From the NCBI GenBank assembly GCA_008632985.1, contig QPGO01000282.1, positions 1 to 36,680 on the forward strand: 36,680 nucleotides of DNA, read 5' to 3'. The DNA is from Psammoneis japonica (Eukaryota). The notes beneath the pieces are model-generated. The model saw only the letters and a list, made by a program, of their open reading frames with translations. It made no database searches and was not told the DNA's origin. Positions within the stretch are counted from its first letter, which is position 1; each line of letters starts with the position of its first letter. Shown one piece after another: positions 13,667 through 34,954 of the stretch. The translations under genes were made by a program, and so were the position numbers.

Positions 13667-14369
13667 GGAGTGCGACGAGGCTGAGTTTTTTGCTGTTGCG
13701 GGTGGAGAAGATCGTCTGTGATTGTACATCTTATTTTTCGTTCAGGCCTGCATTGTCGTGAAGACGTGTTGGGCAGAAATTGTTTCAGATGTCAGCTTGT
13801 GGTGCGCATTCACTTGTCATTTTGGCACTCGAGTTTAACTGCAGCAGCAAAGTTGGAAGAGGCTTTCCAGATCTCGCATTCAGGCACGCATTGTCAAGAC
13901 GACACATGTGAGTTGGCCGCCGTTTCGGAACTGGTTTTGTGTGCCGGCAGAAGAGAATGCAAGATCTAGTTTGCCTCTGAAAGCTAATGTTGAACAGCAG
14001 CAACACTTGTTCCAATGTTCAAGTCGAAAACCATTGCAGGACTGGCGGAATCGAATGAGAAAATGAGAAACAAACATTGGACGGGCTTTTTGCGTGCAAG
14101 GTAGAAGCTCACGGATTGTCAGGTTTAGCATGGCAGGCATGGGGCATGGGAGTGGGGCTGGGGCTCGAGAGGGATTAGTTGGCGCACTGCAGAGTGCCAG
14201 GCCTGCAGATCAAGATTGTGAAAACAAAACAAAAATTAGAAAATGCACCACAATCAGAACATCTCTTTCGCGCTTTTGAAAACTCTCTTTCACATCGTCC
14301 CACTTGCAACCATCTGCTGATGGTGCAAGTGAGGCAATTGAGACTGTCATTGAGTGCAAGGTCATTGGT

Positions 14370-15035
14370 TAAGAGCGTCTGCTTTGTCCAAAGATTACCA
14401 CACAGGTTGCGACCATCAGCATTGAGCATCTCATGCACCGCACGAATCCACCAGGCCCGTTTCAGGCTGGGTCGGCAATCTCAAGGGCGATCTCCATCAG
14501 AACATCAAGGATCTTTGCATCGTTCAGGACCCGACAAAGGAAAAAAAGCATCCCAAGTAGCTCGCGGCCAGTTGCAAATCATTTGGTGCCGAGGAGGACG
14601 CGTCCGTGAAGGTGTTGCTTGCATCGGATCGGGTGTCTGCACACCTCACTCGACCTTTGCCGACGCCTGTCCATTGGCGCCTTGTGCTGATGCTGTGGAC
14701 GACACAGGCTGTGCCTCAGAACGGCAAGACATGCGTGCAAGACTTGGTTGCCATTGCCGATGATGCCCGTCGTCTGTTGCGTGAGCGCACCAACGGCATG
14801 CTTTGCGTTCGTGGCAACCGGAGCTTGCCCAAACCTCTTCAGGACGCCCTTGTCAAGAGCTTTTCCGAAGCGAGCGAAGATCCATCTGAGATAGAAGCCG
14901 CGACTGCTGTTGTGGAAGATGTGTTTGTCCAAGGTCGTGCTCAGCAAGGGGTTTGGTTGAACACGGGCGCCGCATTAAAGCAAAATCGTGCCAGACTACC
15001 CACAACCCATGACGACAAAAAGAATGGCAATTGGA
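14370..15035 (+). pseudogene. Fragment of an unidentified protein-coding gene
   Basis: Protein-like reading across copies: GNLKGGLHQNIKDLRIVKDPTKDKKYPK..AFGYKSLGAEEDASVKVLL..PVHWRLVLML..VQDLVAIADDARRLLRER; no family recognised. Confidence 0.4.
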
Positions 15036-15039
15036 AAAT

Positions 15040-15920
15040 TCTTGACGGAAAAGAGGGTCGCAGACATTCTTTCTGTGTCTTCATGCGCCACAATTGTTTG
15101 GGGTGGAGGCGAACATGATGGCTTCTTGTCGCCATCTGTGCCGGTTTGTGGCTGCATCGGAGTTGAAGCAGTTTCCGACTTGGAAATAAAGTTTGCAAAG
15201 TGCTTGGATGATTTAGCACTGAACAAAAGACGAGCAGCGTGCAACAATAATGCACATGCGTCCGTTCAACAAAAAGCATTAAATAAAAAGAATGACACGC
15301 ACCCTTCGCCAAGCATGCTTGCTGTCTGGAATGGGATCAATTGTTTCACAAATTCGCCTCAGCTGATCGTTTTCACAACCGTGAGGTGCATGGACAATCC
15401 GAGAAACAGTTCTGCCGCCACGCGTCCCAAGGACCACATGTCAAAAGCGGAATCGCACGGCAGCCGTAGAGTGGAAGAACTTCCGGGCTGCGGTAAAACC
15501 GAAATTGAATGTAGCTGTGAGCCGTGTTTCCTTCACAGCAAGCCGAACCGAAAACAGTTGACTTGACATTGCTCGAATGAGACTGCTTCTCGGTCGAACA
15601 ATTGATCGCTGGCACAATTCCTTCACGCTGCCGTCCATTGTTTTCATGAGCAGCGGCCGAACCTTTGTCAAGGGCAACCTTCTGAACTGCCGCTGATTCA
15701 AAACCTCTTGTGTTCATCCCAACAATTCAAACACCAAGCAAAGGTGATTCTGATGCGGACTGTACGATTGCAGGTGCGCTGTCTTGCGGTTTTCGCTTTG
15801 ACGTTAATGGCCAAGAAATCCTTGTCTTGCTCAGCACCCAAAGACACCAATCTCCACAGCTGCTTGTTGTGTACAAGCTTGCCTGTTCTTCACCACTTTC
15901 AGGGCTACAAAGACTGCCAT
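15040..15920 (-). pseudogene. DYRK-family (YAK1-like) protein kinase fragment, copy A
   Basis: VALKVVKN..QAAVEI, HLCLVFELLG, QRQFRRLPL, FGSAC(C)EGNTAHSYIQFRFYRSPEVL, MWSLG.VAAELFLGL; intron with donor at 15302; HCDLKPEN region missing. Confidence 0.9.
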
Positions 15921-15984
15921 GACAAACAGGGAGCGAGTTGAGACACGCATGTGCCACTCCAGTGCGGCTCTTTAAGCCACAGAC

Positions 15985-16570
15985 GCACCTTTCCACCGCC
16001 TGGTGGACTGGTTCCCTGCGCAAGGCGTCTGCATGCTTTTCGTGCACCAACAAGCAATCAGGAGCCACGCGCTAATTTTTCATTGCAAAAACAGAAACAG
16101 AAATGAGTTCCACAGCAGCAATTCAAAATCAACAGGAACAGCATTTTCAAATTCCAAAACTCCATTTACATGGCCTTTGTCCCACATAGAAAGTTTTGCC
16201 CAATGATGCATTCCTCGGCTCAATCTTTAAAAGAGAGAAAAGAGCAGTTGGCAAGATTAATGCGTTGGGTAATTCCGCCACTTTCACGCGCAACATGCAG
16301 CATGCTCACCCTTCCAACTTCCAATGCGTTCCGATCCGGCAAACAAAATGGTTCATCATTCTTTTCCAAGAGCATCTCTGTTTCTTCCACGCCGCCTTGA
16401 ACAACTGTTTGACAAAGAAGAGGGAAAACAGGAAGCGTCAGAAGAACGAGCTCTTCCACAAGACATGCAATGCACACACATGAGCATCTGCCAGGGGGTG
16501 CATGCACACACCTTGCAATGCTCCCGGATCAAAACAGTGTGTCACCAATTCTTGCAGGAGCACCAAGAGT
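15985..16570 (-). pseudogene. Aldehyde dehydrogenase (ALDH3-like) fragment with introns, copy A
   Basis: LLQELVTH(C)FDPGALQ/VVQGGVEETEMLLEK (joined by an intron with donor at 16511), ILFAGSERIG (FTGS motif), RII.GKTF..GQ, VAPD(C/Y)LLVHEKHADAL. Confidence 0.82.
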
Positions 16571-16584
16571 GCCCGACCGCACTG

Positions 16585-16893
16585 CGTCTCTCCTCCCAGA
16601 GTCGGTCCGACATCTTTCAGCTCTTGAATCTCCACCACACTTTTGTGCATGCGAGGAAAGGCGCTTCTGGCAATGACAGCAGCACCGGAAGCACCAAAAA
16701 CCAAATGAAAAAAGGACGTCCGCGAAGCTTCCAAAGCCTCGGAAACGATTGGGGCAGCGGAGGTTCCATCCGGAATTGCTTCAAGCCGCGACTTTGTGAA
16801 TGCAATTCGTGGGTCTCCATTGTCACTCGGACAAAAGGAGTGAACCATGCAGGTCACGATCAGCACAACAAGAAATGTGAGAAGGCACCTCAT
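16585..16893 (-). pseudogene. N-terminal fragment of a signal-peptide (possibly plastid-targeted) hypothetical protein, copy A; copy B at ~35550-35859
   Basis: caccATG followed by MR(C)LLTFLVVLIVTCMVHSF, a signal-like peptide; IWFFGASGAAVIARSAFPRM(H)..IQELKDVGPTLGGET. Confidence 0.55.
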
Positions 16894-17869
16894 GGTGAAC
16901 GGGACGGGAGCGCCAGTGCAGCACCGACAAAAAAAAAAGAAAAAAGTGAGCAAGAAAAATGAGGATGACGTCAGGAAAGCATGCGTGCTGCACACACTGT
17001 GCAGACGCACGACGCACGGGCGGGTGGCTGTTTTTCGGACGACAAAACAGCACAAGAATCCAACTTGAAACCAAACAACAGAGAAAATGCCCATGACTTG
17101 TTTCAATTTTGTCAAAATGTCCGCCAAGTTTCACCATCTTCCTTTCATGACACCCACTGCAACAGCTTCTCAAACCACATGATGGTTTGTCACACTCTTG
17201 TGTTTGTTCCTGTTTGGGGCCGACTCTCTGCAGGACCCTCGGCAGGCCTTGGTTTCTCAAGTTTCTCAACGTCTTATCCCAGACGACACATTGGTTCTCT
17301 GGCTCTGCCTGGTTTGACCTTCATGACTTCATTGAGTTGTTTGACAGTCAACACATGCCAGCAGCATTTCAAGGTGCTCGTGACCATGTCTGCTGTGGTT
17401 GTGTTGCAGCACAAATTCACATGTCAGGGTCAGGCCACGGCCAATCAAAAATCTAAACCTCAAATGACAGAAGAAGCAAGATGCATCCTCCAAGAACATC
17501 CAGCACACCATTCAAACATGCAGTGCTCACCTGACAGTTGGCATCTGGCCTTTGCCCTTCTTGCCACATTCTGAGGCCCCGCAGCCCTTCAAACCATGTT
17601 TTTTCTCCGCACAGCCCATGGCGCGCACTTAAACACAAACACAGGAGCACCTGCCATCCATCATCCAGCATCCTCTGTGCTCTTGCCAGTTTCCAACAAG
17701 GTGTCAGAGACACTCTTGAAGAAGCCAGGGAAGTTCTTGGTCTTTTCCACTGGCTTGCTCATTCTGAGCAGACATTTGGGAGCCTTCTGGCAGCGCTGGG
17801 TTTGCTGGTGCATTGCAAAGCAACCTCTTTCAGCACAGTTTCCAGCAGCAATCTGTGCATGAGTGCTGT

Positions 17870-18390
17870 TCTGTTGGTGGTGGCAGTGGCACACATTGAA
17901 GCTCTGGTGGTGTGAAATGCTGAGAGAAGCAATGCTGAGTTGCCTTTTGTGCAAGACTGCATTTCATGTGGAAAAACATCAGCAAGTGCAGAAAGTGCAT
18001 TGGCACACTCTCAATGGAAAAGAACAAGACCAAGCCAACAAGCTGTGTGAATGAGGAGCAGAAGACAGCACACAAACACAAGGCCACAGTCACAAAAATG
18101 TCTGACAATGAGGTCCACAACATGGAAAAAACAGCTGACATTGAGCAACCTGCTCAAGCCAATGCCAATCTGAAGGCCAAGTCCAAGGATCAGAAGAGCT
18201 GTGCACGAAGTGCACAGGAAAGCAAGAAGCTTGCACAGGCACCCAGTTTGGGCACAAGGCTTGCAAGAAACCTCCAGCTGAGGAACGAATGGTTGCACCC
18301 AAGCACAGGAGCAGGGTCTGGGCAATTGGGTCGTGATGGAAAGTCCAGCATTTTGCAGAAATTGCAAGAACACTCTGTGCAAGCTTGAGT
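17870..18390 (+). repeat. Diverged copy of 8170-8710
   Basis: Shared TGCTGAGAGAAGCAATG...GGCACACTCTCAATGGAAAAGA...GCACCCAAGCACAGGAGCAGGGTCTGGGCAATTG. Confidence 0.85.
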
Positions 18391-19493
18391 TTTTTTGTGT
18401 GGAACTCAAGCAGCCAACTGTGGGCTTGCACAGGGCCATGCTTTCCATGCAGCATGGTTTGGCATGATCTGCTGCACCCCATCTGGGATTGCATGCTGTG
18501 CAAAAACTTGAAGCGGGCCACAGCTGGCACATCTGGAAATTGTCCTGAGGTCAGTTGACCTTTTTGTTGCAGGTTCTGATGAGCTTTTTCATTGTGTGTG
18601 CCCTTCATGTTGTTGGGAACAACACACGTCACTTGGAGCCCATGTTGTCAGTCACAAGTGTTTGTTTTGCCCCACATTTTTGAAGCATCTGCACAATCCA
18701 TTTGCTCTTCTCTCTGAAGTCACTCACAAACAAAGTGGTCTGCAGCCTGTTCTGGGTGGTGGAGTGGTCCTCCTCTTTCAAGCAAGAGCCTGTTGACTTC
18801 AGGGCACAACCATTTTTCATGTTTTGTGTTGTTTTGATTCGCACCTTCTGAGCATTTCATCAAGCAACATCTCTTGCTCAAGCAAAAGTGTGCACAGCTG
18901 CTCTTGCTGTGCATCACATCTGGGCTTTTTGTTTGATGTGCCACACCTTGATCACAGTTGCTGCGTGCTTGCATGCACGTTGAAGCAGCACCAGCATGTC
19001 TTCTGTGTGAAATGCAGAGCCAATGTTTTGCATCAGAACATGTGCATTGGCTCTAGAAGGAGCCACTCAATGGCCTTTCTAGGAAAGTCTTGTCCAGCCC
19101 ACACCCCCTGGCAATGTCAAAAATGTGCCAGCAGCAGTGTCTCAATTTTTTTCCAGGTGAGCCCCTTTCTGCTTCAGCCATTTGGTGCATGTGCCCAAGC
19201 TGTTGCAGTCACTCAATTTGCTGCCATGTTGGCAGTCACAAAGTTTTGAACATGACATTGTGCCTCACAGCTGGCTTCAACATCTCTCCTGCTGGTTGTG
19301 TGAAATGCAGCATCTGCAGCATGTTTGTGTCAAATGAGTTGAATCTTGGAATTTTTGCCATCTTGTGCTGACACGTGTGAGGTTGCAGCACATCACTGCC
19401 ATTTTGTTGAGCGGGGCAAAGGTTCTGAAAAATGATTGTGTGCACTCTCAACTGCACGAGCAACGCCACTGCAATTTTGCTCTTTGCTCCCCT

Positions 19494-19769
19494 TGGCAGG
19501 ATTTGAACAGGATTTAGGTGCGCGCGAAGCATCGCGCGCTGTTTAGTTTACCGCGCACAGTTTTGTGTGCTTTAGTTCCGCGCGTTCACGCGCGATGCAG
19601 TTTGCTTTCGAGCCACAAGGCTCACAAGAATGATGACAGTAGCCTGATTGCACCGACTTGCACGTCTTTCGGCTCCTGTGACGGTCTCTGAACGGAGACT
19701 CATCTGCCATTTAGACAGCAGTGAGGAGTTGTTGTTTGAATTCTTGCCATTTGCCTTCAATTTGCAACA
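19494..19769 (+). repeat. 5' LTR
   Basis: TGGCAGGATTTGAACAGG...TTTGCAACA; aligns without gaps to 26295-26570 (offset 6801). Confidence 0.96.
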
Positions 19770-19786
19770 GATTAACAGTCTTGCTC
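19770..19786 (+). other. Primer-binding site, complementary to a tRNA-Asn(GUU)-like anticodon arm (half-tRNA type)
   Basis: GATTAACAGTCTTGCTC directly follows the LTR CA; its reverse complement GAGCAAGA-CTGTTAA-TC contains the Asn anticodon loop CUGUUAA. Confidence 0.7.
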
Positions 19787-20717
19787 ATTGTCAACCCATT
19801 GAGCAACCGCCATCGTCGTCGTTGATTTACCAACGACACCACTTCAATTCTACGTGGACCTCCGCATGTGTTCTACATACATCGGCAAGTCTACGTGCAT
19901 TCAACACCAGGGCATTGGCAGGAAGTTAACGTCACCGTCAAGTCTCCTCACCGCTGGACATCTGGATTGATCATGCTGCCTTTGATCGCTGAAGACTTGT
20001 GTTCAACGGTCACATCCAAGTCTGTCCTTGATCAACATCCCTTGATGTGCCTGTTCCTCGGTTGACGGTCAAGAACCCTGCACATTCAAGGATCTTAGTC
20101 GCTGAAGACATGTGTGCACATGTGTGTGTGCATGTCTTCACGGCCAAGAACCTTCATCCACTCTTCGGACTGCGGTTTTGCTGCCACTCTGCAAGCACAC
20201 CGAGTCCACTGCACCTGATCCACCCCGGACTGCTGGTGCTCCACAGTTCTGCTGGGTCCACGAGGACGACTGTGAGAGCAAGCAGCCATGATTACAGCCT
20301 GCGTTGGGGCGAGGGTGTTTTTCCCGCGTTTGTTCGTTCGTCCACAGCGCCTGACGCCTGCGTCAACTGGCCAGCCTGATTGGGAAATCCAACCGACATA
20401 AAACAAGAACGGTTCGGGGGTCTTGTCCACCTCTGGTCAGCTTACCTGCAGGGGTTTACAACCCGCTACTCCGCTCGTAAGCAACCCAAAGCACCACCAG
20501 CTGCGGGTTCGGACGTGCCGGCACAACTCTACGGACCGGATGGGAAGTTTAGCACTCAACAACGAACGGGATAACAAAGCCAGGCGACTTCTGATTTTAA
20601 GACAGTTCAAGATTTCAAGTCAAGTCCATTTCAAGTCAAGTCTGTTCTCACCCAAGTTTCGAGTCTACCTTCGCTTCCCAACCAGAATTGATTGTCCTGA
20701 CACCACTTTTGTCTGCC

Positions 20718-23700
20718 ATGGTTCTCACTCGTCAGCAACAAACCGATGGTTTCGAGCACGTTGTTGGAACCGTGCTTGCCCAAGGTGCTGGGAGTCCTCT
20801 TCGTTTGGCTTTGGCCCAAGACGGCACGGACTCGTGTCAGGAACTGTTCACGTTCATACCGTCCCAAATCGACTCGCTTGAGTGCGACAACGGCACTGGT
20901 GTAATCCCCTTGCCCCGTGGTCATAAGAACATGTTAGCAGCACCAGTCAGTCTGTACATTGTCAAAGCACACAAAGGTCTTGACGTTGCCAACGACTCCT
21001 CTTTGTTCGCGCATGACAAGTTCCTTGCCTGCCGCCTCAGCCCCGACTGCATGTCTTCTGTGTCCATCGGCAGCTCACCCCTTGCACCTCCACATGTCAC
21101 CAACCCGACCAAGGCACGCGACCCGGTGAGAGACTTCAAGCGAGGCATCAAGCGTGATCCCACCGCTTTCACGGCTCTCAAATCCGACAAGCAGTGGCAC
21201 ACTTGGCACACCTCACTTGTGGCACAAGCCCGTGCCCAAGACGTCGAGTGCATTCTAGACTCGTCGTACAAACCGACCAGCCCCGAAGACAAACTGCTCT
21301 TTGCTGAACAGCAAAAGCACATGTTCGCCATCTTCGAACGCATCCTTCTCACCGACAAGGGCAAGGCTCTCATTCGCGAAAATGTGGGGTCTTCTGACGC
21401 ACAGACCGTCCACCGCTCCTTGTCTGAGTGCGCGCTTGCCTCCACCCATGCATCTGTCGAGTCCTCCACCCTGCTCACGCACCTCACCACCGCACGTCTT
21501 GGTGATGGCACTTGGAAAGGTCCGACCCACGGGTTCATCCTTCATTGGCAAGATCAGTTGCGCAAGTGCGAGGCACTCATCCCCGCCAGTGACCACTTCT
21601 CTGAAGGACAGAAGCGCGTCATGCTCGAGAATGCCGTGCACCCTGTCGAGGAACTCCGTGCTGTCAAGAACCAAGCTGATCAGCATCGCACGCAGAGTGG
21701 CAAGAGCCTCACATGCGATCAACACTGTGGCTTGCTCCTCTCCGCGGCAGCTCAGTGCGACAGCACGTTTCAACCCAAGACGACACCCAGAGCTCCCCGA
21801 TGCGCCATACACGCACACGACGTCTGCTCCGAGGAACCGTCCGAAGATGTGTTCTACGACATTGACAGTGACGTTGACGTCCTTCAAGCCAATGCTGCCT
21901 GCACCCGCGGTCCCAGCCTCACCGGTGTCCAATGGAGACGTCTCCCTCCCGACCACCAACGGCTCTGGGATTCGTTGCCCGATTCCTCCAAGGCGATCAT
22001 CCTTGAGCATTCTCGTCCGCCTCCCCGCAACCCGCGAGCCAGCAACTGCCATGAGTCTGTTACGGCCAACCTTCACGACCAACACCTTGGGAGTGACGGT
22101 GATGTCAACTTGTCCAACACGACTCCTGCTGACTCTGGTGACTCCGCTCCACATGTGGACGCCACTTCGGACAATCCCATCCTGGCGCACCTCACCAAGC
22201 GCAAGCCACTGCCACCCGGTGATCTGCAACGTCTGTTGTCTCCTAACCAAGCCCCCAATGCCAGTCGACCGGGGCCATCCGCCGCTTCCTCTACCCTGCC
22301 AGCTTCTGCAGATGACACAGAACTTAACGGCCGCACTTGCCGCCGCGTCAACAACCACAATGTCATTCACTCTGCCTCTGCTCATCGCTCCACACGCACT
22401 GGCGCTCTAGTCGATCGTGGGGCCAACGGCGGCATTGCTGGCGACGACGTTTGCGTCATTGCACGCACCTCTTGCCAAGTCGACGTTCAGGGCATTGACG
22501 ATCATCAATTGGTGGACATCCCCATTGTCACCGCTGGTGCCGTTGTTGAGACCCAGCGTGGTCCCGTCATCGCCATCCTCCATCAGCACGCATGCACGGG
22601 CAAGGGCAAGACCATCCATTCCTGCGGCCAGCTCGAATGGCACAAACAGGATGTCAACGATCGCTCTGTCAAGGTGCCCAACGGCTTGCAACGCATTGCC
22701 ACTCCTGATGGCTGTGTCATCCCCATTGACATCAAGGCTGGCCTGCCTCATGTTGCCATGCGACCTTGCACTGACGCCGAATGGGACACCCTGCCCCATG
22801 TCATCCTCACCGGTGATGACACATGGGACCCTTCCGTCCTCGATCACTCTGTCACTGATGACGACCAGTGGCACGACGCGATCTCTGACCTGCAGGACGA
22901 TCCCACTGCCAACCTATTTGACGAATGCGGCAACTGCCGTCATCGTGTCGTTGTCAATGAGACCATCATGTCCACTTCCTTGTCTGCCGATCACGCGTCC
23001 GCCCTCGATGATCACCTCATTCCGAACAACGACGTGTTCTACGAGTGTCATCTGCGCACTGTACAGCCCAAGGACCCCCCCTTCGAGTCTCTTCGGCCTT
23101 GCTTTGGCTTCCCACCTGCCGATGCGGTCCGTCGTACTTTTGACTGCACCACGCAGTGCGCCCGCATGCCCGCCGGTACACACCTTCGCAAGGCCTGCAA
23201 ATCACCCAACCCCGCCCTCAATGTGCACCGCCGCAACGAGCCTGTCGCCACTGACACCGTTTGTGCCGACACCCCGGCCGTCGACTCTGGTTGCACCAGC
23301 GCCCAACTGTTTGTTGGCACCGAGTCTACCGTCACTGACGTCTGCGGCACTGAGACGGACAAAGAGTTTGTCAACACACTCGAGGATCAGATCCGTGAAC
23401 GTGGTGCCCCATCCAAACTCATTGGCGACCGTGCTCAAGTTGAGATCAGCAACAAAGTGCTCGGGATCCCACGCGCCCTCTTCATCTCCAGCTGGCAAAG
23501 TGAGCCTCACCAGCAACACCAAAACTTTGCCGAGCGTCGACACCAGACCGTGAAGCGCATGGCAAACACTGTCATGGATCGTTTTGGTTCGCCCGCCCAC
23601 ACATGGCTGCTGGCGCTCATGTGCGTGTGCTTCGTGCTCAACCATGCAGCGTCCCCACGTCTCCACTGGCGCACGCCCCTCGAGACTCTCACTGGCTCCA

Positions 23701-26294
23701 CCCCGGACATCAGCCCATTGCTTCGCTTTCACTGGTGGGAACCCATGTGCTTCCACCTCGATGACTCCGATTGGCCGTCCGAATCCCGTGAGTTGCGTGG
23801 ACGCTTCGTTGGCATTGCTGAGCACGTCGGCCACCAAATGACCTTCAAAAATTCTATCTGACGAGACTCAGAAGATCCTCTGCCGGTCCAACGTCCGCTC
23901 CGCCACCCCCGATCCTGCCGTTCGAAACCTGCGTCTTGATCCTCCTGATGGGGAGCCACCTGAACCCATCATCAAATCTCGCCATGACGACAACCCCGTC
24001 GATTCTCCTGATGGGGAGATCAGGACACCCAAGATTCCAGTTTTTTGATCCGCAAGACATCATTGGACGTGCCTTCCTCATGCAGCCACAAGAGGACGGA
24101 CAACGCCACAGAGCTCGCATCGTCAAGGCCGTCGAAGACCACGAATGGAAAGTGAACGGCAATCCCGAGCTCACTAAGTTCGTCTGCTCTGTCAACAATG
24201 ACGAATACGAGGAAGTCCTTGCCTGCAATGACATCATGAATCACATTGAGCAAGAAGACGAAGACACCACTGTTTGGAAATTTCGACGCATCGTGTCACA
24301 CGAAGGACCTCTGAAGCCTCACGACCCAACCTGGAAAGGCTCCAGCTACAACATCATGCTTGAATGGGAAAGTGGGGAGATCACGTCCGAGCCTCTTGCC
24401 ATCATCGCCAAGGACGACCCCGTCACCTGTGCCATCCATGCACGAGAGAACGGACTCCTCGACACGGATGGCTGGAAGCGGTTCCGCACCATCGCGAGGC
24501 GCCAAAAGAAGCTGTTTCGCATGGCCAACCAAGCCAAGCTTCGCTCCTTCCGCACTGCACCTCGCTGCAAGCATGGGTGCGAAGTTCCCCAGAACTACAA
24601 ACACGCCATGTCACCAGACAAACGCAACGGCAACCGCAAGTGGGGAGACGCAACTAATCTCGAGATGGACCAACTCGACGAATACGAAGTCTTCCATGAC
24701 TGCGGGCCCTTCAAGTCTTCCACTCCTCCTGCGGGACACAAGAAGATCCGAGTGCACCTGGTGTGCGACGTGAAACACGACGGTCGCCACAAGGCACGAC
24801 TCGTAGCCGACGGGCACCTCACAGACGTACCTGTCGACAGTGTCTGCTCCGGAGTAGTCTCCCTCCGTGGCCTTCGGCTGATGATTTTCCTGGCCGAACT
24901 CAACGAGTTGGAGACATGGGCCACCGACATTGGCAATGCCCACCTTGAAGCCACCACCAAGGAGAAGCTTTACATTGCAGCTGGACCCGAGTTCGGCAAA
25001 CTCGAAGGACACATCCTTGTCATCCACAAGGCACTGCATGGACTGCGCAGCTCCGGTCTCCGCTGGCACGAGCGCTTCGCCGACTGCCTGCGAGCTGAAG
25101 GCTTCTTCCCCTGCCGCGCCGAACCCGACATTTGGATGCGCAGGAATGGCGACCACTGTGAACACATTGCCGTTTATGTGGATGACCTCGCCATTGCCAT
25201 GAAGGACCCTCAATCTTTCGTCGACACTCTCACGGAAAAGCACAAGTTCAAGCTCAAGGGCACGGGACCCATTGAGTTCCATCTGGGTTGCGACTTTTCC
25301 CGGGAACCCGACGGAACCTTGTGCCTGTCTCCGCGCAAGCACATCGAGCGCATGGTCGACAGCTGTGCCCGACTGTTTGGGGAGAAACCTGCCACCAACG
25401 CCCTGTCACCTCTAGAGAAGGGTGACCACCCCGAACTGGACACTTCCGAACTGCTGGGACCTGATGGCATTCGCAAGTTCCAGTCTCTTGTTGGTTCACT
25501 CCAATGGGCAGCATCCCTTGGTCGAATTGACATCACCACGGCCGTCATGTCACTCTCTAGCTTCTGAGCTGCGCCCCGTCAAGGCCACTTGGATCGTGCC
25601 AAACGCGTCTGTGGGCACCTCTCCAAGATGCGACACGGTGCTCTCCGCGTTCACACGGAAGAGCCCGACCATTCGGATCTCCCTGCTCCGGCCTGTGAAT
25701 GGATGCATTCCATGTGTGGTGAAGCAGAAGAGATGATCCCAAAGGACGCTCCACCGCCCCTTGGCAAGTTCGTCACTGCCACCCACTACGTCGATGCAAA
25801 CTTGTGCCATTGCATGCTCACCGGACGCTCTGTCATGGGAATGCTCCACTTCCTCAACAAATTCCCGGCTGATTGGTTCTCTAAGAAACAAGCCACCGTG
25901 GAGACTGCGACCCACGGGTCTGAATTTGTTGCCGCAAGGACTTGTGTTGAGCAGATCATCGACCTGCGCATCACCCTGCGCTGCCTTGGCGTCCTGATCC
26001 GCAACGTTAGTTACATGTTCGGTGACAACAAGTCGGTTGTAGACAGTGCCACCATCCCACACTCCAAGTTACACAAGCGACACACCGCACTGTCGTTCCA
26101 CCGTGTGCATGAGGCAATTGCCTCTGGTCACCTTGAGCTCCACTTCATCGAAGGCTCCCGCAACCCTGCTGACATTCTCAGCAAGCATTGGGGTTGCTCC
26201 CAAATCTGGGACCTTCTCCGCCCCCTCATGTTCTGGAACTTCATTCCATCCGAAGTCGAATCTGTTTCTGTGGCTCCTCAAGCAAACTGGGGAG
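20718..26294 (+). pseudogene. gag-pol polyprotein (Gag, aspartic protease, integrase, RT, RNase H), disrupted
   Basis: Gag FKRGIKRDP; PR ALVDRGANGG; IN ATDT...GDRAQVE...QNFAERR; RT HKARLVADGH, DIGNA, YVDDL (25175); RH YVDANL, GSEF, GDNKSV, NPADILSK. Frameshifts near 23850 and ~24010, in-frame TGA at 25565 (probably from CGA), and pervasive Tyr->Cys/His. Confidence 0.95.
26289..26294 (+). other. Polypurine tract (short)
   Basis: GGGGAG directly upstream of the 3' LTR TG. Confidence 0.7.
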
Positions 26295-26570
26295 TGACAG
26301 GATTTGAACAGGATTTGGGTGCGCGCGAAGTGTCGCGCGCTGTTTAGTTCACCGCGCACAGTTTTGTGTGCTTTAGTTCCGCGCGTTCACGCGCAATGTG
26401 GTTTGCTTTCGAGCCACAAGGCTCACAAGAATGATGACAGCAGCCCGATCACACCGACTCACACGTCTTTCGGCTCCTGTGACGGTCTCTGAACGGAGAC
26501 TCATCTGCCATTTAGACAGCAGTGAGGAGCCATTGTTTGAATTCTTGCCATTTGCCTTCAATTTGCAACA
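26295..26570 (+). repeat. 3' LTR
   Basis: TGACAGGATTTGAACAGG...TTTGCAACA; preceded by a purine run and followed by the TSD CCCCT. Confidence 0.96.
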
Positions 26571-27734
26571 CCCCTCTTGGCAAACACACATTTTTGCACT
26601 TGCACAGGGCAACATTCCTGCAACCTGCACAGGAATGGGGTCCAACCACTCAGGCAGTGACATGTGAGTTCAGTGCCATGGAAGTTGCAAGACCACTCTG
26701 TGCACAACTCACATGCATGGGGCAGCAAAACATGCTGCAGAGCTTGAGTCCACATTTGACACTGTGCATCTTCTGCAAAGCCACCCCTTTGTGCAAGATG
26801 TGCCAATTGCAGGATGAACAGCTGGGTCATGACTTTCCTGCATGAAACTCATGTGTGCAACAACAGGCTTGCAAGGTGCTTCTGCATTGTGATCAGCTGA
26901 TCCTGCGGGCCAGTCTGCAGACATGCAGAATGGCAGCCTTGCTGCATGCAATCCAGGGTTGCTTGCTGAACAGTGGCTCAAGATCATTGCTGTCCAAACC
27001 AGCAGCTGGCACCATGCAATGTTTTCAGGCAAACTGTTCTTGGTGAACACTCATCCACTCCATTTTGTCAGCTGGAGCTGCTGACAGCATGGCTGCCAAG
27101 AACAACCTGGGCTTGTGCCCTGATGCCTGTGGTGCTGCTGGCACCAATTTTGTCACATCCAAGCAGTGCAAACCTTTGAAAGATGTGCCAATCTGCACAG
27201 CTGCTGCTGTGTGGGTTGACCCAAAGTTGGGTCAACCTCACCTGCTGCCAGCCCGCAAGCAGGCCATGCACTTTGAGGGCTGGATGAAAAAATTGCTCTT
27301 GTGCCCCAGCAGCTGCACCCAAGTGGGTTGGAACTGTTCATGGCACACCTTGCCAGTTTGACAGGAGCAGGAATGCTCCTCACCCAGCTGTGCTCTTCCC
27401 TGGTGCTCAACAAAAGTCACAAACCTGCTGAAACCAGAGGTCACAACCCTGCTGCAACCAGAGGGAGTTTTGCTGGCATTTGAATCTGACAAATCTGCTC
27501 AGGTGGATCTGAACAACCTGCCATGAGTGGAGCTGATGTTGCTGCTAAAGTGGGGGGGCTTGTCGATGCTTCTTTTGGACAAAAGGAGGGAGATGTCCAA
27601 AGCAAAGGTGGCATGGAATGAGGAGGACAATGGTGGCACCCCAGAACAGATCAGGGAAGGCAAGAACCCAAATGCGGCAGGCTGTCAGAAGCTCAAATGT
27701 CATTTGGGTGGAAGAAATCATGGTCGCCAACTTC

Positions 27735-28070
27735 AAAATGAAGCAAGCCTTGTCACTTGACTGTGACACAGAGTCAGGGGCCTCCATCATGGGCAATGAC
27801 AAGAACCTCACAGCCGATGTGGAAATGATGGAACAGACACAGGTGCAAGCTGATGTTGTGGTGGCTTTGGCACAAAACCTGGATGCTCGTGAAGTGCGGT
27901 CAATGAGGTTGCAACACTGTTTGTCTGATGGATTTATCCGGTCAATTGCTGAGTGTGCCGGTGCCATGGGCTTGGGCGAGTTGTGCACAGCACTCAGTTG
28001 GCGGCAAGATGTTTGAAGAAGTTGTGCCATGAGGCACACGTTGCATCCAGTTTCCAAGAGCATCTCTTGA
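27735..28070 (+). pseudogene. Sigma-70 factor C-terminal fragment, copy B
   Basis: KQALSLD...ADVVVALAQNLDAREVRSMRLQHCLSDGFIRSIAECAGAMGL. Confidence 0.75.
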
Positions 28071-28939
28071 TGATTGCCCAGACAGGATGTGCAACACAGA
28101 AGCCAACATGACATCAGAGCCAGAATGGATGCACTGAGCTTGACCGTGCCTGCTGAACTTCACCTCCAATCCTGTCAGCACACACATCGTCTCCTCCCCA
28201 ACAGCACTGGGGTTTGGTTGATTCCAACCACCAAACCATCTGTGCAATGACCAGGCTTCTCATGGGCTTTACAACCCCACTGGTTGGAGAGTGGATGTGT
28301 GTTTCCAACAAAATTGAAGCAGGTGTGACCACATTTCCAGACACTGACGGGAAATGAGAGGAGCTTGGTCAAATCGGATGAGAAAAGCAACAGGTCAACA
28401 CATCCCCATCACACCTGGGATGGCCAGTCCCTTCCAATTGAGGCATGTGGTGGGAATCCCTTCATGCCGTGCCTCAACCAATTCATCCGCAACCACTGCA
28501 GATTTTCTTGACTCCACTGAATCGCTTCTTTTTTGCTGACAATTTCGAAGCTCTGTGCCGTCATCCATTTGGGTGAATGACAAAGCGCACTGCTCATTCA
28601 TTGACATTTCAGCCTGTGCTGCGGCATCTAACCACAGCGAAGTTCCCAACACATGGACACCACAAACATCCAGTGCCTCCTTCTCCAGCAAATCTTGTTC
28701 TCCTCTGCATGCGAGCCACTCCCGCTGCCCCAACACCCTTCTTGATTTCCTGCCTTGGATGTTGCACATCTCCTGATTTCCAACAACAAACAATGTCTCT
28801 TCAAACTGATCAGTTTGCTTGTGCAAGAAAGCATGCAGTGAGTTGGTTTAAGACAAGCCTGATGTCACCGAGCAATGCCAAGACAGAAGCACGCCACCGA
28901 ACAAATGAAATTTTCTCATGCACTTGCTGATTCCAACGC

Positions 28940-29550
28940 CAGACAGAATGCTTCACAGTGGCAACACTTTGAAAGTTGCTCCAGTCAGAAATGTAAAAAT
29001 GAATCACCAAGTCATTTGTGGACAGGAGTGCCAGTTGATTTGAGTCCCTGTGCTTCATTGGCATCTCATCACACTTTCTTGCAACCAAAGACTTCAGCTC
29101 TCCTGCCTCTTCTAAGGATCTCTGCTTGGCGCATTTGGCAAGATGCACAAATCCAACGTTCCAAGCAATGAAGACAGACTCTGGGCAAGGTGCAATCAAA
29201 GTTGCATCTCCTCCAAGATTGGAAAATGTGCAGCAACATTCAGCTCCTTTGGCACTGCATTCTTTGTTCGTTTCCTCAACATTTTGATCTAAACTGCTCT
29301 CAATGTGATGGTTCTCGACCGTGTCGTCACCGCTGCTTGTTGTGTCCCAGCCACCATCCCTCCTGCAGCCTGCCCAATTGTTGCTTTCAGCATCCCAATT
29401 GATTTCCATCCAAAATCTTTGTGCACATCATCACTGCAACTGGCAGATCCAAACAGATGTTCAGAAAAGGTTTCGGGGTCAGCCTCAGCTGCACTCTCTA
29501 GATCAAGAGACGGGCCCAGGGCAAACTCAGCTGGAATGAATCTGCACTTC
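28940..29550 (-). pseudogene. Fragment resembling DUF6940-type proteins (family name from memory), copy B only
   Basis: EF..ADPETFSEHL..TFSNLGGDATLIAPCP..HLA..LST..HF*LEQLSK(CC)H(C), compared with the recalled motif FxNLGGDAxLxxP..HLA..LST..LHxRLDxxPKYY. Confidence 0.5.
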
Positions 29551-29569
29551 CTCTGCACTTGAAAATTGA

Positions 29570-30380
29570 AAGCAAGAAAATGGGCTGTGATGCCTTGATG
29601 ACTCTGCCCATTCTGCAGCGGATGGCTCAGACCCCAAATGCAATGGAAAGAAGAATCAATGTGGCCGAAAGGGCAAATCCAAAGCCACGCAGTGCCCTGT
29701 TCAGGTGCTGCAGCTGCAATCCACCTGGACCTTTGAGTGGAGGCAGAGACACCTCATGTTGGTTGTTCCATTGCAAGAGACACGGGGTCAAACTGCACCA
29801 CGTTCCCATCTCGAAAAATGTCTGTCCGAACAGCACCAAAGGCGACATTTCCGGTTTCTGGGTCTTTTCGTTCCACAAAGTTGAGCAACCGGTGCAATGC
29901 ACAGTGGTCAAATCATGAGACCCTGTCATTGGGTCAATGACAGCAGAATCCGAAGAATCCACAAAGCTTTGCATTGACAGCATGCTCGCAATGGGAGACG
30001 CCGTCAAAGCAAGTGAGACGTCGCGCAAGCAGCCAGCCCATGGAGATTGTGGAACCATGTGCAGAAAGATCCCCAGATCTGGAGACTTGAATGTTCTTTT
30101 GACTGGAAGCTGATCTCCACGTGATCTGGATGGTTCTGAAGCTCTTGCATGCTCGAAACCATTGCACGCAGATCGCAAGAGTTCCTGGCATCCTGGCTCT
30201 GGACAAAGAGCACGGAACTTGTGTGTTCTACGAGCCACCTTGCACAGGACGCAGGTCATCTGAGAAAAAACCAGACACAGTCATTTCCAGTGATCCCCTG
30301 GCAATTGTAAAGCAAGGGTGTCAGGTGGTTTTGCTGAGAGAGAGATTCCGGACCGTAGCAGCAAAGTGTTGACCATGGTC
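29570..30380 (-). pseudogene. Class C GPCR fragment, copy B (truncated at TM2)
   Basis: Aligns to ~11195-11985; more degraded than copy A. Confidence 0.8.
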
Positions 30381-30827
30381 TTGTGTGGTGCGGTTGGGCG
30401 CTGGCAGGTGGTGCGGCACAGCACGTGCGAAAAAGCGATCAATCGAACAGAAGAAAAAATTTTGTCCATCACCAGCCCCACAACAAACAAAAATGACTGT
30501 CATGTGCGTGTCAACGGAAAGCACGACACAGATTTGTTGCCTTGCAAACTTATGGCGAAGTCGCATCAGGAGCAAACGAGCAAAGAAAAAGCGGCTGTGG
30601 CCATGACGATGAAGATTGTAGCGGCATTCCGAGTTTGGATTCGAGATGATTACTTGGATCAAACCCAGCACCGGTTTAAATTGTGTCAAAACCAACTTGC
30701 CACTTCGCGGACACGATTCCCTACACGCGAAAATCTGAAATGCGCAAGCACGCACTTTCCCACGCACTCTTCGTCCCACAATCGCAGTTCTGGCAAGAAA
30801 GTAAAGTGTCGCATCAACAATGTCACC

Positions 30828-32063
30828 ATGTTGTGCGCTTTCCTCTTCTTGAACGCTTTGTTTCTCATTGGCAACTATGGCCGAGCCATTTCTTGCCTGC
30901 GTGGGGATCCTAAAGAGTTCCTGGCAGGCGCGGTGCTCTGCTTCGTCTTGTGTTGCTTGTTGAGGAACATCGACGTCTGGATCGTCGTCCGAACCTTTGT
31001 GGTTGCATTTCTCCTCTGGCTCTGTACGATCCTTGCTACGGCATTGTCCAAGCAGACAAGGTGGAATTGTTCTGAATTTAACCAGCCTCCCCACGTTCCT
31101 CGCAGCCACTTTGTGGAGGCGCAACGCAAGACGCATCGTTGCGACGTCAATGAGCCATTTGCATCGTAAGTTTTTGTTGCTCTTGTTGTGCTGCCCATTG
31201 TTGTGACGCTTGTTTCTAACGTCACCTTCTTTCTTTGATGTTCCATTTCTTGTGTTCAGCTCTGCTGACGGCACTGGTTCCAACAGTGGAGTGGCTCACG
31301 AGCCGTCTTCAAACTACAACCCCCCACCCCTCCGTCGATTTTAAAGAAAAAGACAACGTCAAAGCTTCATCCCCCAAGCCGAGCCTTCCAAAGTACCGCC
31401 ACAACGTCAAACCAGAAAAAGACAACGTCCAAGCTTCACCTGTCAAGCCGAGCCCTCCAAAGCACCAGTGCAAAGTCGGTGAGAGAGTTTTGTACACGAA
31501 TGGCAATGCCAACGACGTCGCTTCCGCCAAGATCATTGGCACTCACCTTGATGACAAAACTCTGCACTACACTGTCCTCTTCTCTAACAACAGAGAGAGG
31601 CAGACGGTTGAAAAGAATCTATCGCCCATCCCAAAAACACCAACGTCAGAAAAAGACGACATCGAAGCATCGCCTCCCAAGCCGAGCCCTCCAAAGCACC
31701 AGTGCAAAATCGGCGAGAACGTCATGTGCACGAAAAACAATACGAACGATGTCACTTCTGCCAAAATCATCAGTGTTCACCGCGACGACAAAACTCCGCA
31801 CTACACTGTCCTCTTCTCCAACGGCAGAGAGCGACAGACAGAAGAAAAGAATCTATCTCCCGCCCCCCAAAAAACCGACGTCCAAGTACGAGAAGGGCCA
31901 AGACGTGCATTGCTGCCGCAACAACGCTCGTGCATTGGCCAAGATTCTCAGGGTGCACTTTGATGATGATCTCGTGGCGCATTGCGACATTAAATGTGTG
32001 GATGGGAGCGAGAGGCAGACGATTGACAAGTGCCTGGAGGAACATCCGTCTCCCGAGTTGTGG
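30828..32063 (+). pseudogene. Same TM plus 3x Tudor/SH3-like gene, copy B
   Basis: ATG at 30828; intron 31166-31259 (94 nt); inferred ancestral TAG at 32061 now reads TGG; frameshifts in C-runs near 31325 and 31865. Confidence 0.8.
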
Positions 32064-34014
32064 GGAGTGCGACGAGGCTGAGTTTTTTGCTGTTGCGGGT
32101 GGAGAAGATTGTCTGTGATTGCACATCTTATTTTTCATTCAGGCCTGCATTGTCGTGAAGACGTGTTGGGCAGAAATTATTTCAGATGTCAGCTTGTGGT
32201 GCGCATTCACTTGTCATTTTGATGCTCGAGTTCAACTGCAGCAGCAAAGTTGGAAGAGGCTTTCCAGATCTCGCATTCAGGCACGCATTGTCAAGACGAC
32301 ACATGTGAGTTGGCCGCCGTTTCGGAACTGGTTTTGTGTGCCGGCAGAAGAGAATGCAAGATCTGGTTTGCCTCTGAAAGCTAATGTTGAACAGCAGCAA
32401 CACTTGTTCCAATGTTCAAGTCGAAAACCATTGTGGGACTGGCGGAATCGAATGAGAAAACGAGAAACAAACATCAGACGGGCTTTTTGCGTGCAAGGTA
32501 GAAGCTCACGGATTGTCAGGTTTAGTGTGGCAGGCATGGGGTGTGGGAGTGGGGCTGGGGCTCGAGAGGGATCAGTTAGCGCGCTGTAGAGCATTGGGCC
32601 TGCAGATCAAGATTATGAAAACAAAACAAAAATTAGAAAACGCATTGTCAGAACATCTCTTTTGCACTTTTGAAAACTCGCTTTCACATTGTCCCACTTG
32701 CAATCATCCGCTGTCAGTGCAAGTGAGGCAATTGGGGACCATTGCTGAGTGCAAGGTCATTGGTTGAGAGCGTCTGCTTTGTCCAAAGATTGCCGCACAG
32801 GTTGCGACCATCAGCATCAAGCATCTCATGCACTGCACGAATCCACCAGGCCCGCTTCTGGCTTGGTCGGCAATCTCAAGGGCGGTCTCCACCAGAATGT
32901 CAAGGATCTTTGCATTGTCAAGGACCCAACAAAGGACAAAAAGCATCCCAAGTAGCTCGGGGGCCGGTTGCAGATCATTTTGTGCCGAGGAGGACGCGTC
33001 CGTGAAGGTGTTGCTTGAATCGGAACAGGTGGTGCTGCACATCTCATTCGACACTTTGCCCACGCTTGTCCATTGTCGCCTTGTGCTGATGCTGTCAACG
33101 ATGCAGCCACATGCCACTTTGTTCAAAGATTGCCACATGCCGCAGGTTGCGACCATCAGCACGAAGCATCTCCTGTGCCGCACAAATCCACCAGGCCCGG
33201 TTCAGGCTTGAACGGCAATCTCAAGGGCGGCCTCCACCAGAACATTGGGAACTTCGCATCGTCAAGGACCCGACAAAGGATAAAAAGCATCCCAAGCATC
33301 TCGCGTTCGGTTACAAATCACTTGGTGCCGAGGAGGACGGGTCCATGGAGGTGTTGCTTGCATCGGCACGGGCAATGCTGCACACTTCACTCGACACTTT
33401 GCCGACGCCTGTCCATTGGCGCCTTGTGGGGCTCGAGAGGGATTGGTTGGCGTGCTGCAGAGCATCAGGCCTGCAGATCAAGATTATGAAAACAAAACAA
33501 AAATTAGAAAACGCATTGTCAGAACATCTCTTTTGCACTTTTGAAAACTCGCTTTCACATCGTCCCACTTGTGTCATCCGCTGTCAGTGCAAGTGAGGCA
33601 ATTGAGGCTGTTGTTGAGTGCAAGGTCATTGGTTGAGAGCATCCACTTTGTCCAAAGATTGCCGCACAGGTTGCGACCATCAGCACCAAGCATCTCATGT
33701 GCCGCACGAATCCACCAGGTCCGCTTCTTGCTTGGTCGGCAATCTCAAGGGCGGTCTCCACCAGAATGTCAAGGATCTTCGCATCGTCAAGGACCCGACA
33801 AAGGATAAAAAGTATCCCAAGTAGCTCGCGGGCGAAGATCCATCTGAAATAGAATCCGCGACTGCTGTTGTGGAAGATGTGTTTGTCCAAGGTCGTGCTC
33901 AGCAACAAGGGGTTTGGTTGAACACGGGCGCCGCATTAAAGCAAAATCGTGCCAGACTACCCACAACCCATGACGACAAAAAGAATGGCAATTGGAAAAC
34001 TTTTGACGGAAAAG

Positions 34015-34885
34015 AGGGTCGCAGATTTCTTTCTGTGTCTTGATGCGCCACAATTGTTTGGGTGGAGGCGAACATGATGGCTTCTTGTCGCCATGTGTGC
34101 CAGTTTGTGGCTGCATCGGAGTTGAAGCAGTTTCTGACTTGGAAATAAGTTTTGCAAAGTACTTGGATGATTTTGTGCTGAACAACGACGAGCAGCGTGC
34201 AACAATGAACAAGCACATGCGTCCGTTCAATGAAAAAGCATCAAATGCAAAGAATGACACGTGCCCTTCGCCAAGCATGCGCACTGTCTGGAATGGGATC
34301 AATTGTTTCACAAATTCGCCTCAGCCAATCGTGTTCACAACCGTGAGGTAGTGTGGACAATCCGAGGAACAGTTCTGCCGCCACGTGTCCCAAGGACCAC
34401 ATGTAAACAGCGGAATCGCAGGGTAGCCGTAGAGTGGAAGAACTTCCGGGCTGCGGTAAAACCGAAATTGAATGTAGCTGTGAGCCGTGTTTCCTTCACA
34501 GCAAGCCGAACCGAAAGCAATTAACTTGACATTGCTTGAATCAAACCACTTCTCGGTCGAACAATTGATCGCTGACACAATTCCTTCACGCCACCGTCCA
34601 TTGTTTTCATGAGCAGCGGCCGAACCTTTGTCAAGGGCAACCCTCTGAACTGCCGCTGATTCAAAACCTCTCATGCATTCATCCACAACAATTCAAACAC
34701 CAAGCACAGGTGATTCTGATGCGGACTGTACGATTGCAGGTGCACTGTCTTGCGGTTTTCGCTTTGACGTCAATGGCCAAGAAATCCTTGTCTTTGCTCA
34801 GTGCCCAAAGACATTGATCTCCACAGCTGCTTGTTGTGCACAAGCTTGACCATTCTTCACCACTTTCAGGGCTGCAAAGACTTCC
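34015..34885 (-). pseudogene. DYRK/YAK1-like kinase fragment, copy B
   Basis: ALKVVKNGQACAQQAAVEINVF; NVKLIAFGSACCEGNTAHSYIQFRFYRSPEVL. Confidence 0.9.
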
Positions 34886-34954
34886 AAGACAAGCAGGGAG
34901 CGAGTTGAGATGCGCATGTGCCACTCTAGCACGGCTCTTTGAGCCATGAACGTA

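Follow-up and report, generated by a model that had tools for sequence, protein, structure and literature searches.

Results

A copia-type element in TpA-poor DNA

We analyzed a stretch of 36,680 nucleotides from Psammoneis japonica (contig QPGO01000282.1, positions 1–36680 of the forward strand; hereafter, the window), in which a retrotransposon flanked by long terminal repeats (LTRs) lies within DNA that is strongly depleted of the dinucleotide TpA and carries TpG and CpA in excess. The element is a Ty1/copia-type LTR retrotransposon, as shown by its RVT_2 reverse transcriptase domain, its direct LTRs with TG...CA ends and a 5-bp target-site duplication (TSD). It resembles known Ty1/copia elements in RVT_2, in the short TG...CA LTRs and in the 5-bp TSD, and its relatives encode a single polyprotein of about 1850–1950 amino acids. 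The features of the element, and the depletion in which it is embedded, are as follows.

1–36680, no strand: TpA-depleted DNA with TG and CA in excess (observed/expected dinucleotide ratios, o/e, in 1-kb bins)
19489–19493, plus strand: 5′ TSD, CCCCT, identical to the five bases after the 3′ LTR
19494–19769, plus strand: 5′ LTR of 276 bp with TG...CA ends, equal to 26295–26570 at 259 of 276 positions
19770–20717, plus strand: leader that separates the 5′ LTR from the polyprotein ATG, where relatively more TA survives
20718–23849, plus strand: polyprotein part 1, N-terminal, about 1044 codons with 4 Tyr (tblastn with residues 1–1046 of P0004, a relative of 1859 amino acids; 49.7% identity)
23848–24045, plus strand: third-frame polyprotein stretch (tblastn with residues 1001–1150 of P0004, which gave three frames in order)
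24044–25564, plus strand: polyprotein part 2 with the reverse transcriptase (RVT_2 at about 24728–25360)
25565–25567, plus strand: in-frame stop, TGA, where the conserved residue is Arg (R>X in the alignment)
25568–26294, plus strand: polyprotein part 3, C-terminal, in the frame of part 2 (the tblastn match runs past the stop to 26257)
26295–26570, plus strand: 3′ LTR of 276 bp, which pairs with the 5′ LTR
26571–26575, plus strand: 3′ TSD, CCCCT, matching the 5′ copy

Three open reading frames (ORFs) form one polyprotein, namely 20601–23861, followed by 23822–25567 and 25568–26347 in a common frame. RVT_2 (PF07727) matched residues 303–513 of ORF 23822–25567 (E = 1.6e-25; bit score 90.6, cut-off 31.6), and P0004 matched 24044–26257 with 71.4% identity over 739 amino acids in tblastn. 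Apart from two frameshifts and one stop, the polyprotein is collinear with P0004. The frameshifts, near 23849 and 24043, flank the third-frame stretch; in contigs of four sequencing runs, all from one sample of one study, there was one base fewer at 23849/23850 and one fewer at 24041. Pfam found no families in part 1 (20718–23849), and no rve, protease or gag domain in the approximately 1100 residues before the reverse transcriptase. These residues are nevertheless collinear with full-length relatives, in which Pfam likewise sees RVT_2 alone. The initial annotation had used the name ‘CoDi’, a diatom type of Ty1/copia element; none of the searches assigned the element to CoDi or to diatoms.

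One contig of a single run (X1) joins position 19488 to 26571 with five shared letters and thus represents a precise empty site, from either an allelic or a paralogous copy of the flank. Given this contig and the intact 5-bp TSD, the element represents a single clean insertion.

Tyrosine loss in the polyprotein

The initial annotation of this DNA had pointed to a scarcity of tyrosine in the three ORFs, with counts of 4, 6 and 2. These counts were reproduced, with 4 Tyr in 20601–23861, 7 in 23822–25567 from stop to stop (or 6 when counting starts at a later Met) and 2 in 25568–26347, whereas the first ORF, read from the ATG at 20718, measures 1047 amino acids and not the 1057 originally given. 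In total, Tyr accounted for 13 of the 1890 polyprotein codons (0.7%), and Cys and His for 3.0% and 5.2%, respectively; by codon, there were 2 TAT, 11 TAC, 57 TGT plus TGC, and 99 CAT plus CAC. A protein homolog search for longer proteins yielded 1432 matches, of which the best 120 served for comparison of composition: all 120 had Tyr at 3.0–5.0%, Cys at 0.5–1.9% and His at 2.7–4.5%.

The two polyprotein pieces of the window were then aligned separately to 45 relatives (the first 45 of 76 listed with a length of 1800–2050 amino acids), with the in-frame stop written as X. At columns conserved in at least 80% of these relatives, Tyr was kept at 6 of 39, compared with 631 of 690 for all other residues (Fisher p = 1e-26); at columns conserved in at least 95%, the values were 3 of 21 and 402 of 422 (95%), respectively (Fisher p = 8e-19). 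Tyr loss is, hence, far beyond chance. The 33 Tyr lost at the 80% columns had become Cys in 16 cases, His in 13, Phe in three and Trp in one, and Y>C and Y>H together made up 29 of all 92 differences at these columns and 17 of 38 at the 95% columns. When columns conserved in at least 60% were considered, Y>C (21) and Y>H (19) were balanced.

This alignment, with its tabulated substitutions, is the check that had been proposed along with the initial annotation, and it placed the loss on Tyr, with relatives carrying Tyr, rather than Cys or His, at the columns concerned. It also bore out the idea that TAY>TGY and TAY>CAY changes strike both strands. Nine motifs had been cited as holding Cys or His where Tyr is usual; in eight of them, the consensus was Tyr at every Cys or His named, whereas the column in VHLVCDVK was F in 35 and Y in 10 relatives. 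For HQHACTGKG, which had been set against ‘HQYAY’, the His column agreed (Y 39, F 6), while the Cys column was mostly occupied by other residues (L 19, Y 13). Conserved Cys columns (6 of 6) and His columns (28 of 28) use TGY and CAY codons in the element, that is, the same codons as those now found at former Tyr columns, and this excludes codon reassignment.

As a separate observation, the reverse transcriptase motif YVDD at 25172–25183, within DHCEHIAVYVDD, retains an intact TAT codon for its Tyr, although TAT is the context most readily lost elsewhere.

TpA depletion in all reading phases and throughout the window

The phenomenon is a TA effect rather than a Tyr effect, and the polyprotein is where the depletion reads out as amino acids. 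TA-bearing codons other than those for Tyr were represented in the polyprotein by ATA 2, CTA 4, GTA 6 and TTA 2. At conserved columns, L>P changes were encoded by CCA in 3 of 3 cases, the sole I>M by ATG, and V>A by GCA in 1 of 3. The suggestion that other TA codons behave like the Tyr codons was thereby supported, including its individual examples: the consensus is Leu, now CCA, in GIPRAL and AMSPDKRNG, Ile, now ATG, in GMLHF, and Val, now GCA, in QWAASLGR. The same depletion crosses codon boundaries, since in the polyprotein only 11 of 381 T-ending codons were followed by A (210 of 381 by G), compared with 282 of 798 C-ending codons.

General aging does not describe this pattern, as had been proposed, with an o/e of 0.89 for CpG in the element and 95% of non-Tyr residues kept at the most conserved columns. 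The accompanying statement that CpG-rich codons are largely intact was correct as regards the CpG o/e but needs tempering: CpG decay is present, and of the 9 changes seen where Arg is conserved, 6 were of the CpG type, the in-frame TGA stop among them.

The depletion is also wider than originally claimed, extending from the copia polyprotein over all 36.7 kb, including non-copia DNA. The window (1–36680) contains 265 TA, and the o/e values were 0.13 for TA, 1.68 for TG, 1.59 for CA, 0.62 for CG and 1.05 for TC. Across 1-kb bins, TA o/e ranged from 0.00 to 0.31, with several bins at 0.00–0.06 and none at a normal level; the most depleted part was DNA without any hallmark of transposable elements (0.00–0.09). 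TA makes up 0.7% of the dinucleotides of the window, near saturation of the loss. For the element alone, o/e was 0.16 for TA, 1.52 for TG, 1.32 for CA and 0.89 for CpG, with a GC content of 57%. The highest values for TA came from the bins of the leader region (0.23 at 19001–20000 and 0.31 at 20001–21000). In comparison, 48 of 51 metagenome loci of relatives had a TA o/e of at least 0.52 (median 0.71), with GC contents of 39–54%, and TA density was 51.6/kb in metagenome relatives versus 7.4/kb in the window and 9.6/kb in the element.

Stop triplets followed the same trend, with TAA (91) and TAG (69) about 10-fold rarer in the window than TGA (737). Because TAA and TAG are nearly gone, 96 stop-free frames of at least 120 amino acids stand open in the 36.7 kb, on both strands and in all six frames, many of them overlapping. 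Gene finders would, hence, over-call ORFs in such TA-poor DNA, which calls for caution in annotation.

CpG showed a mosaic of its own. The 1-kb o/e values for CpG were 0.08–0.24 in 3–10 kb, 0.14–0.32 in 17–19 kb and 0.15–0.39 in 27–30 kb, and the bin 26001–27000, which includes the CpG-rich 3′ LTR, stood at 0.49; most of the remaining window lay at 0.6–1.0. The CpG-poor blocks (3001–10000, 17001–19000 and 26001–30000) hold almost no TA (o/e 0.00–0.12), while the blocks 10001–16000, 20001–26000 and 30001–36000 had CpG o/e values of 0.63–1.01 and TA o/e values of 0.09–0.31. CG and TA appear both to decay into TG/CA, with relative speeds that differ between blocks.

The changes arose after integration

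The two LTRs of a retrotransposon are identical at integration. Those of the present element differ at 17 of 276 positions, in 11 places, and 13 of the 17 fall at inferred TpA sites. The latter comprise five CA/TG doubles (10 positions), that is, sites that read CA in one copy and TG in the other, and three singles with TA in one LTR and TG or CA in the other; the remainder are two CpG-type differences and two further transitions, with neither transversions nor indels. CA and TG at one and the same site are the product of two independent strikes on one ancestral TA. Only three TA are common to both LTRs, all within TTTAG.

Since the LTRs, identical at insertion, differ mainly at TpA sites, these changes arose in DNA after integration, and RNA editing followed by reverse transcription cannot, for the same reason, account for all of them. 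By rough arithmetic on site-copies, there were at least 13 changes on about 22 TpA, 2 on about 40 CpG and 2 on about 400 others, which puts the TpA rate at roughly 100-fold over background and at about 20-fold over CpG decay.

Unrelated repeats carry the same changes

The copia element is inserted in one copy of a large repeat that measures at least 9.7 kb and occurs two to three times, with 75–89% identity between copies (8170–17200 versus 26780–36154); further pieces of this repeat pair 477–1422 with 36012–36678 and 17049–17197. Its best-conserved copies were delimited by self-BLAST.

11198–17200, no strand: non-copia repeat, copy A, 87–89% identity to copy B
29569–36154, no strand: non-copia repeat, copy B

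In the two best paralogous segments, there were 71 CA/TG doubles, 54 singles (TA versus TG or CA) and 35 shared TA. The number of CA/TG doubles compares with 2.7 expected from CpG ancestors and with 6 for the next commonest adjacent double. The TpA change is, hence, independent of retrotransposition and strikes unrelated repeated DNA alike.

Other copies of the family and environmental homologs

In run X1, 13,553 contigs matched the element at 85% identity or more, with up to 55 contigs per variant place; the copia family is multi-copy and diverse. Transitions dominated the variants (A>G 81, C>T 76, G>A 65 and T>C 65, versus 28 transversions). Among the 40 of 333 variant places that were listed, other copies had TA where the window has TG or CA in 16, and the reverse was found in 2; the rest were 15 CpG-type changes or halves of CA/TG doubles, 2 other transitions and 5 transversions, so that 33 of the 40 listed places are transitions that interconvert TA, TG, CA and CG. 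At such places, the fraction of the depth still reading TA ranged from about 10% to 74%, and copies have therefore been converted to differing degrees.

The loss of TA and Tyr recurs beyond the window, in environmental copia copies of other families. Three of the 51 environmental loci were TA-depleted, with o/e values of 0.13 (L037, JAAUXZ010118282.1), 0.27 (L035, JAAUXY010165635.1) and 0.31 (L024, Ga0209536_100168619). L035 and L037 belong to another copia family and are 94.5% identical; 65 of their 99 differing positions were of the TpA type, that is, 20 CA/TG doubles (40 positions) and 25 TA singles. Furthermore, 6 of 269 database homologs had less than 2% Tyr, two of them 0%, with P0147 and P0184 among these Tyr-poor proteins.

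Flanking-base preference

The contexts of surviving TA were compared with the TA contexts in the 48 non-depleted relatives, with the following representation relative to the latter.

ATAT: 0.05-fold
ATAC/GTAT: 0.24-fold
ATAG/CTAT: 0.35-fold
CTAA/TTAG: 2.25-fold
TTAA: 3.1-fold

Judged by these ratios, TA within ATA/TAT is lost most readily, while TTAA and CTAA/TTAG are the most resistant contexts.

Other features of the window

Pfam searches with the flank ORFs (80 of at least 120 amino acids and 93 of 70–119 amino acids) gave one match above the cut-off and no recognizable host gene; the few remaining matches of flank ORFs had no supported stretch. The match above the cut-off and two weak ones are listed here.

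28813–29427, minus strand: DUF6940 ORF (Pfam E = 3.2e-8; bit score 34.5, cut-off 27)
10483–10962 and 11181–11405, minus strand: weak collinear matches to 7tm_3 (class C G-protein-coupled receptor), profile positions 122–199 and 8–49

The DUF6940 ORF lies where the two repeat copies differ. Both 7tm_3 matches were below the cut-off (E about 1e-3), and the pair could represent a host-type gene that has decayed within the repeat, or chance similarity. Neither the DUF6940 ORF nor the larger 7tm_3 ORF (10483–10962) had any match in homolog searches. In addition, a tandem 234-bp unit in about 2 copies occurs in both large-repeat copies (13015–13485 and 31413–31861), a tandem 78-bp unit in 2.9 copies occupies 5334–5558, and dispersed repeats of about 200–400 bp with 67–90% identity lie between 4.2 and 6.0 kb (4192–6003).

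Discussion

A process specific for TpA

TpA specificity, strand symmetry, timing after integration or duplication, spread over the whole window and a bias by flanking bases (ATA/TAT lost most, TTAA and CTAA/TTAG most resistant) were all observed at this locus, and we are all but certain that they reflect a mutational process which converted TpA into TpG or CpA after integration. The fuller statement, that this process was a hypermutation aimed at repeated DNA, we regard as the better-founded reading, albeit with appreciably less confidence. By analogy with the hypermutation described in the alga Bigelowiella natans, we infer that an enzyme drives the process and that repeated or foreign DNA is its target.

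The mutational process itself consists of strand-symmetric TpA>TpG/CpA transitions in DNA, about two orders of magnitude above other substitutions, and it acted after copia integration and equally on the unrelated surrounding repeats. One A>G change (T>C on the partner strand) turns TA into TG or CA depending on the strand struck, both products coming from a single type of change because TA is its own reverse complement. In coding DNA, TAY (Tyr) becomes TGY (Cys) or CAY (His); TAA and TAG are removed, GC content is raised and the proteins of the element are inactivated. The leading candidate for the chemistry is deamination of the A in TpA to hypoxanthine, which would be read as G. The balance of both orientations (Y>C 21, Y>H 19) argues against a transcription-strand-biased process as well as against one acting on single-strand cDNA.

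Of 302 nuclear mutations in mutation-accumulation lines of B. natans, 231 were located in two viral inserts, and 230 of these 231 were A>G or T>C, all at TpA (Mettrop et al., bioRxiv 10.64898/2026.01.13.699255). The same preprint describes 324 TpA-depleted coding sequences, enriched for reverse transcriptase, endonuclease-reverse transcriptase and DDE domains, and 124 clusters of TpA-depleted 1-kb windows, and proposes an ADAT2-like deaminase as the enzyme (bioRxiv 10.64898/2026.01.13.699255). The signature at the present locus matches that hypermutation, with A>G/T>C at TpA in both orientations, TpA depletion and an excess of CpA plus TpG. There are also differences. The evidence from B. natans consists of de novo mutations in two viral inserts with plenty of TpA remaining (3.3% and 9.2%), whereas here a near-saturated end state (0.7%) extends over all 36.7 kb of a repeat region and over a family of LTR retrotransposons. 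The preprint uses cut-offs of 0.43 or less in Rho for TpA and of 1.52 or more for CpA+TpG (bioRxiv 10.64898/2026.01.13.699255); with TA at 0.13, TG at 1.68 and CA at 1.59, the window lies within both, and the element lies within the TpA cut-off, not within that for enrichment. Its main text makes no mention of copia, LTR, retrotransposon, tyrosine, flanking context or LTR-pair timing, although its supplements may list such elements. A literature search for the TpA>TpG/CpA signature returned this preprint as the sole match, and a paper on Alexandrium (PMC3229502) contained nothing on dinucleotides.

Several points weigh against the reading of a targeted hypermutation. A genome-wide TpA bias would look alike in a window without a recognizable host gene or single-copy control, and deamination of A would be inseparable from thymine modification by sequence. 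None of the ORFs of the 36.7-kb window was a candidate for the enzyme. ADAR prefers a G on the 3′ side, unlike the preference for loss at TAT/ATA found here. The excess of TG (1.52) and CA (1.32) in the element is weaker than the CpA+TpG cut-off of 1.52 in the preprint, with o/e and Rho not necessarily equal. Relatives stand in for the ancestral TA contexts, and the context ratios are, hence, approximate. Finally, the sequencing runs may be the assembly’s own source and are then not fully independent of it, though they do speak counter to assembly error.

Alternative explanations

The strongest competitor is a mutation bias at TpA that acts genome-wide, with Tyr and other needed TA kept by selection in functional genes, and with neither targeting nor defense. 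We consider it improbable, yet it deserves serious attention. It gains from the 1-kb bins, all of which had TA o/e values of 0.00–0.31, with the lowest (0.00–0.09) in DNA without transposable-element hallmarks; from repeats of no recognized kind, struck as well as the retroelement; and from the fact that none of the examined DNA of the source organism has a normal TA level. The entire window, however, is repeated DNA and so is uninformative about unique DNA, and a roughly 100-fold rate at each TA would burden all Tyr codons, though this is not impossible. Moreover, the sole documented case, that of B. natans, is regional, with TpA at 6.0% of dinucleotides elsewhere in the genome (bioRxiv 10.64898/2026.01.13.699255).

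Modification of thymine is somewhat less probable again. Here, the T of TpA would be hydroxylated in silenced repeats (5-hydroxymethyluracil, 5hmU, or J-type, through TET/JBP), and mispairing with G or mis-repair would then give T>C, which at a palindromic TpA is indistinguishable from A>G. Dinoflagellate 5hmU occurs preferentially at TpA and TpC according to older biochemistry. TpC, on the other hand, is undepleted in the window (TC o/e 1.05), which also holds no TET/JBP gene. A precedent exists in Amphidinium carterae, where a TET/JBP homolog produces 5hmU, the modified base is concentrated on transposable elements and has a repressive effect on them, and the repeats include Copia and Gypsy LTR elements (PMC11572971); nevertheless, no T>C mutational signature is reported in the available part of that paper.

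Editing of retrotransposon RNA from A to I by an ADAR-like enzyme before reverse transcription is very improbable. Edited retroelement copies are known in animals, and the discussion of the B. natans preprint indicates that U is favored 5′ of the edited A (bioRxiv 10.64898/2026.01.13.699255). However, the LTR pair differs mainly at TpA, often as CA versus TG, for which independent strikes after integration are needed, and the intact TSD argues against these differences having come from recombination between two edited elements. Balanced orientations within one element and non-retroelement paralogs with a like pattern also speak against it. RNA editing as the sole cause was rejected, being contradicted by the differences within the LTR pair.

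An artefact of sequencing or assembly, such as systematic miscalls at modified TA or a polishing error, has even less in its favor, even though the window comes from a scaffolded draft and includes two runs of N. Contigs of four runs reproduce the locus, with CA/TG/TA variation from copy to copy at the sites in question; systematic miscalls would not make an identical context read CA in one LTR but TG in the other; and unrelated metagenome assemblies hold copies with a like signature. The least credible alternative is codon reassignment or selection for a Tyr-free protein, for which the low Tyr count and nothing further can be adduced, against TGY and CAY at all conserved Cys (6 of 6) and His (28 of 28) columns, a TA depletion that is just as strong in non-coding DNA, affects both strands and extends across codon boundaries, and an ORF with two frameshifts and a stop.

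Relation to known systems

Fungal repeat-induced point mutation (RIP) resembles the hypermutation proposed here in its dinucleotide-specific transitions on both strands and in leaving repeats and transposons, already present in the genome, full of missense changes. Its direction is opposite: RIP converts CpA/TpG into TpA and leads to AT enrichment, as described for RIPCAL (PMC2621366), whereas here TpA is destroyed and GC content rises. Fungal RIP was accordingly rejected as a candidate on the TA o/e of 0.13 and the GC content of the element (57% versus 39–54% in relatives).

APOBEC editing of vertebrate LTR retrotransposons and retroviruses (PMC4866542) is similarly a deaminase-type hypermutation that leaves missense-filled copies. 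It operates as C>U on minus-strand cDNA and gives G>A on one strand before integration, in contrast to the symmetric A>G/T>C after integration found here. With LTRs that differ at TpA sites and orientations balanced at 21 versus 19, pre-integration editing of either the APOBEC or the ADAR type, which would be strand-biased and alike in both LTRs, was rejected.

Implications

If the hypermutation was indeed targeted, this locus would provide a second case, far further advanced, of a genome defense in eukaryotes that rewrites TpA, for which a single 2026 preprint, on one alga, is the only description to date. Beyond the main text of that preprint, the present data add the post-integration timing, the involvement of non-retroelement repeats, the strand symmetry and the flanking-base preference, the last of which narrows down what the enzyme may be and provides a search image. 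Two cheap markers for screening also follow, namely transposon ORFs that are poor in Tyr and rich in Cys and His, and the excess of CA/TG doubles between paralogs.

More tentatively, and with the balance still somewhat against it, a TpA-specific, strand-symmetric DNA-editing defense, the mirror image of RIP, may reach more broadly across eukaryotes than two viral inserts in a single chlorarachniophyte and may, after integration, drive whole repeat arrays and multi-copy LTR families to near-complete TA loss, with ATA/TAT preferred and TTAA spared. Were this so, the system would be recognizable in unannotated genomes and metagenomes by transposon ORFs free of Tyr and rich in Cys and His, as in 3 of the 51 environmental loci and 6 of the 269 database homologs described above.

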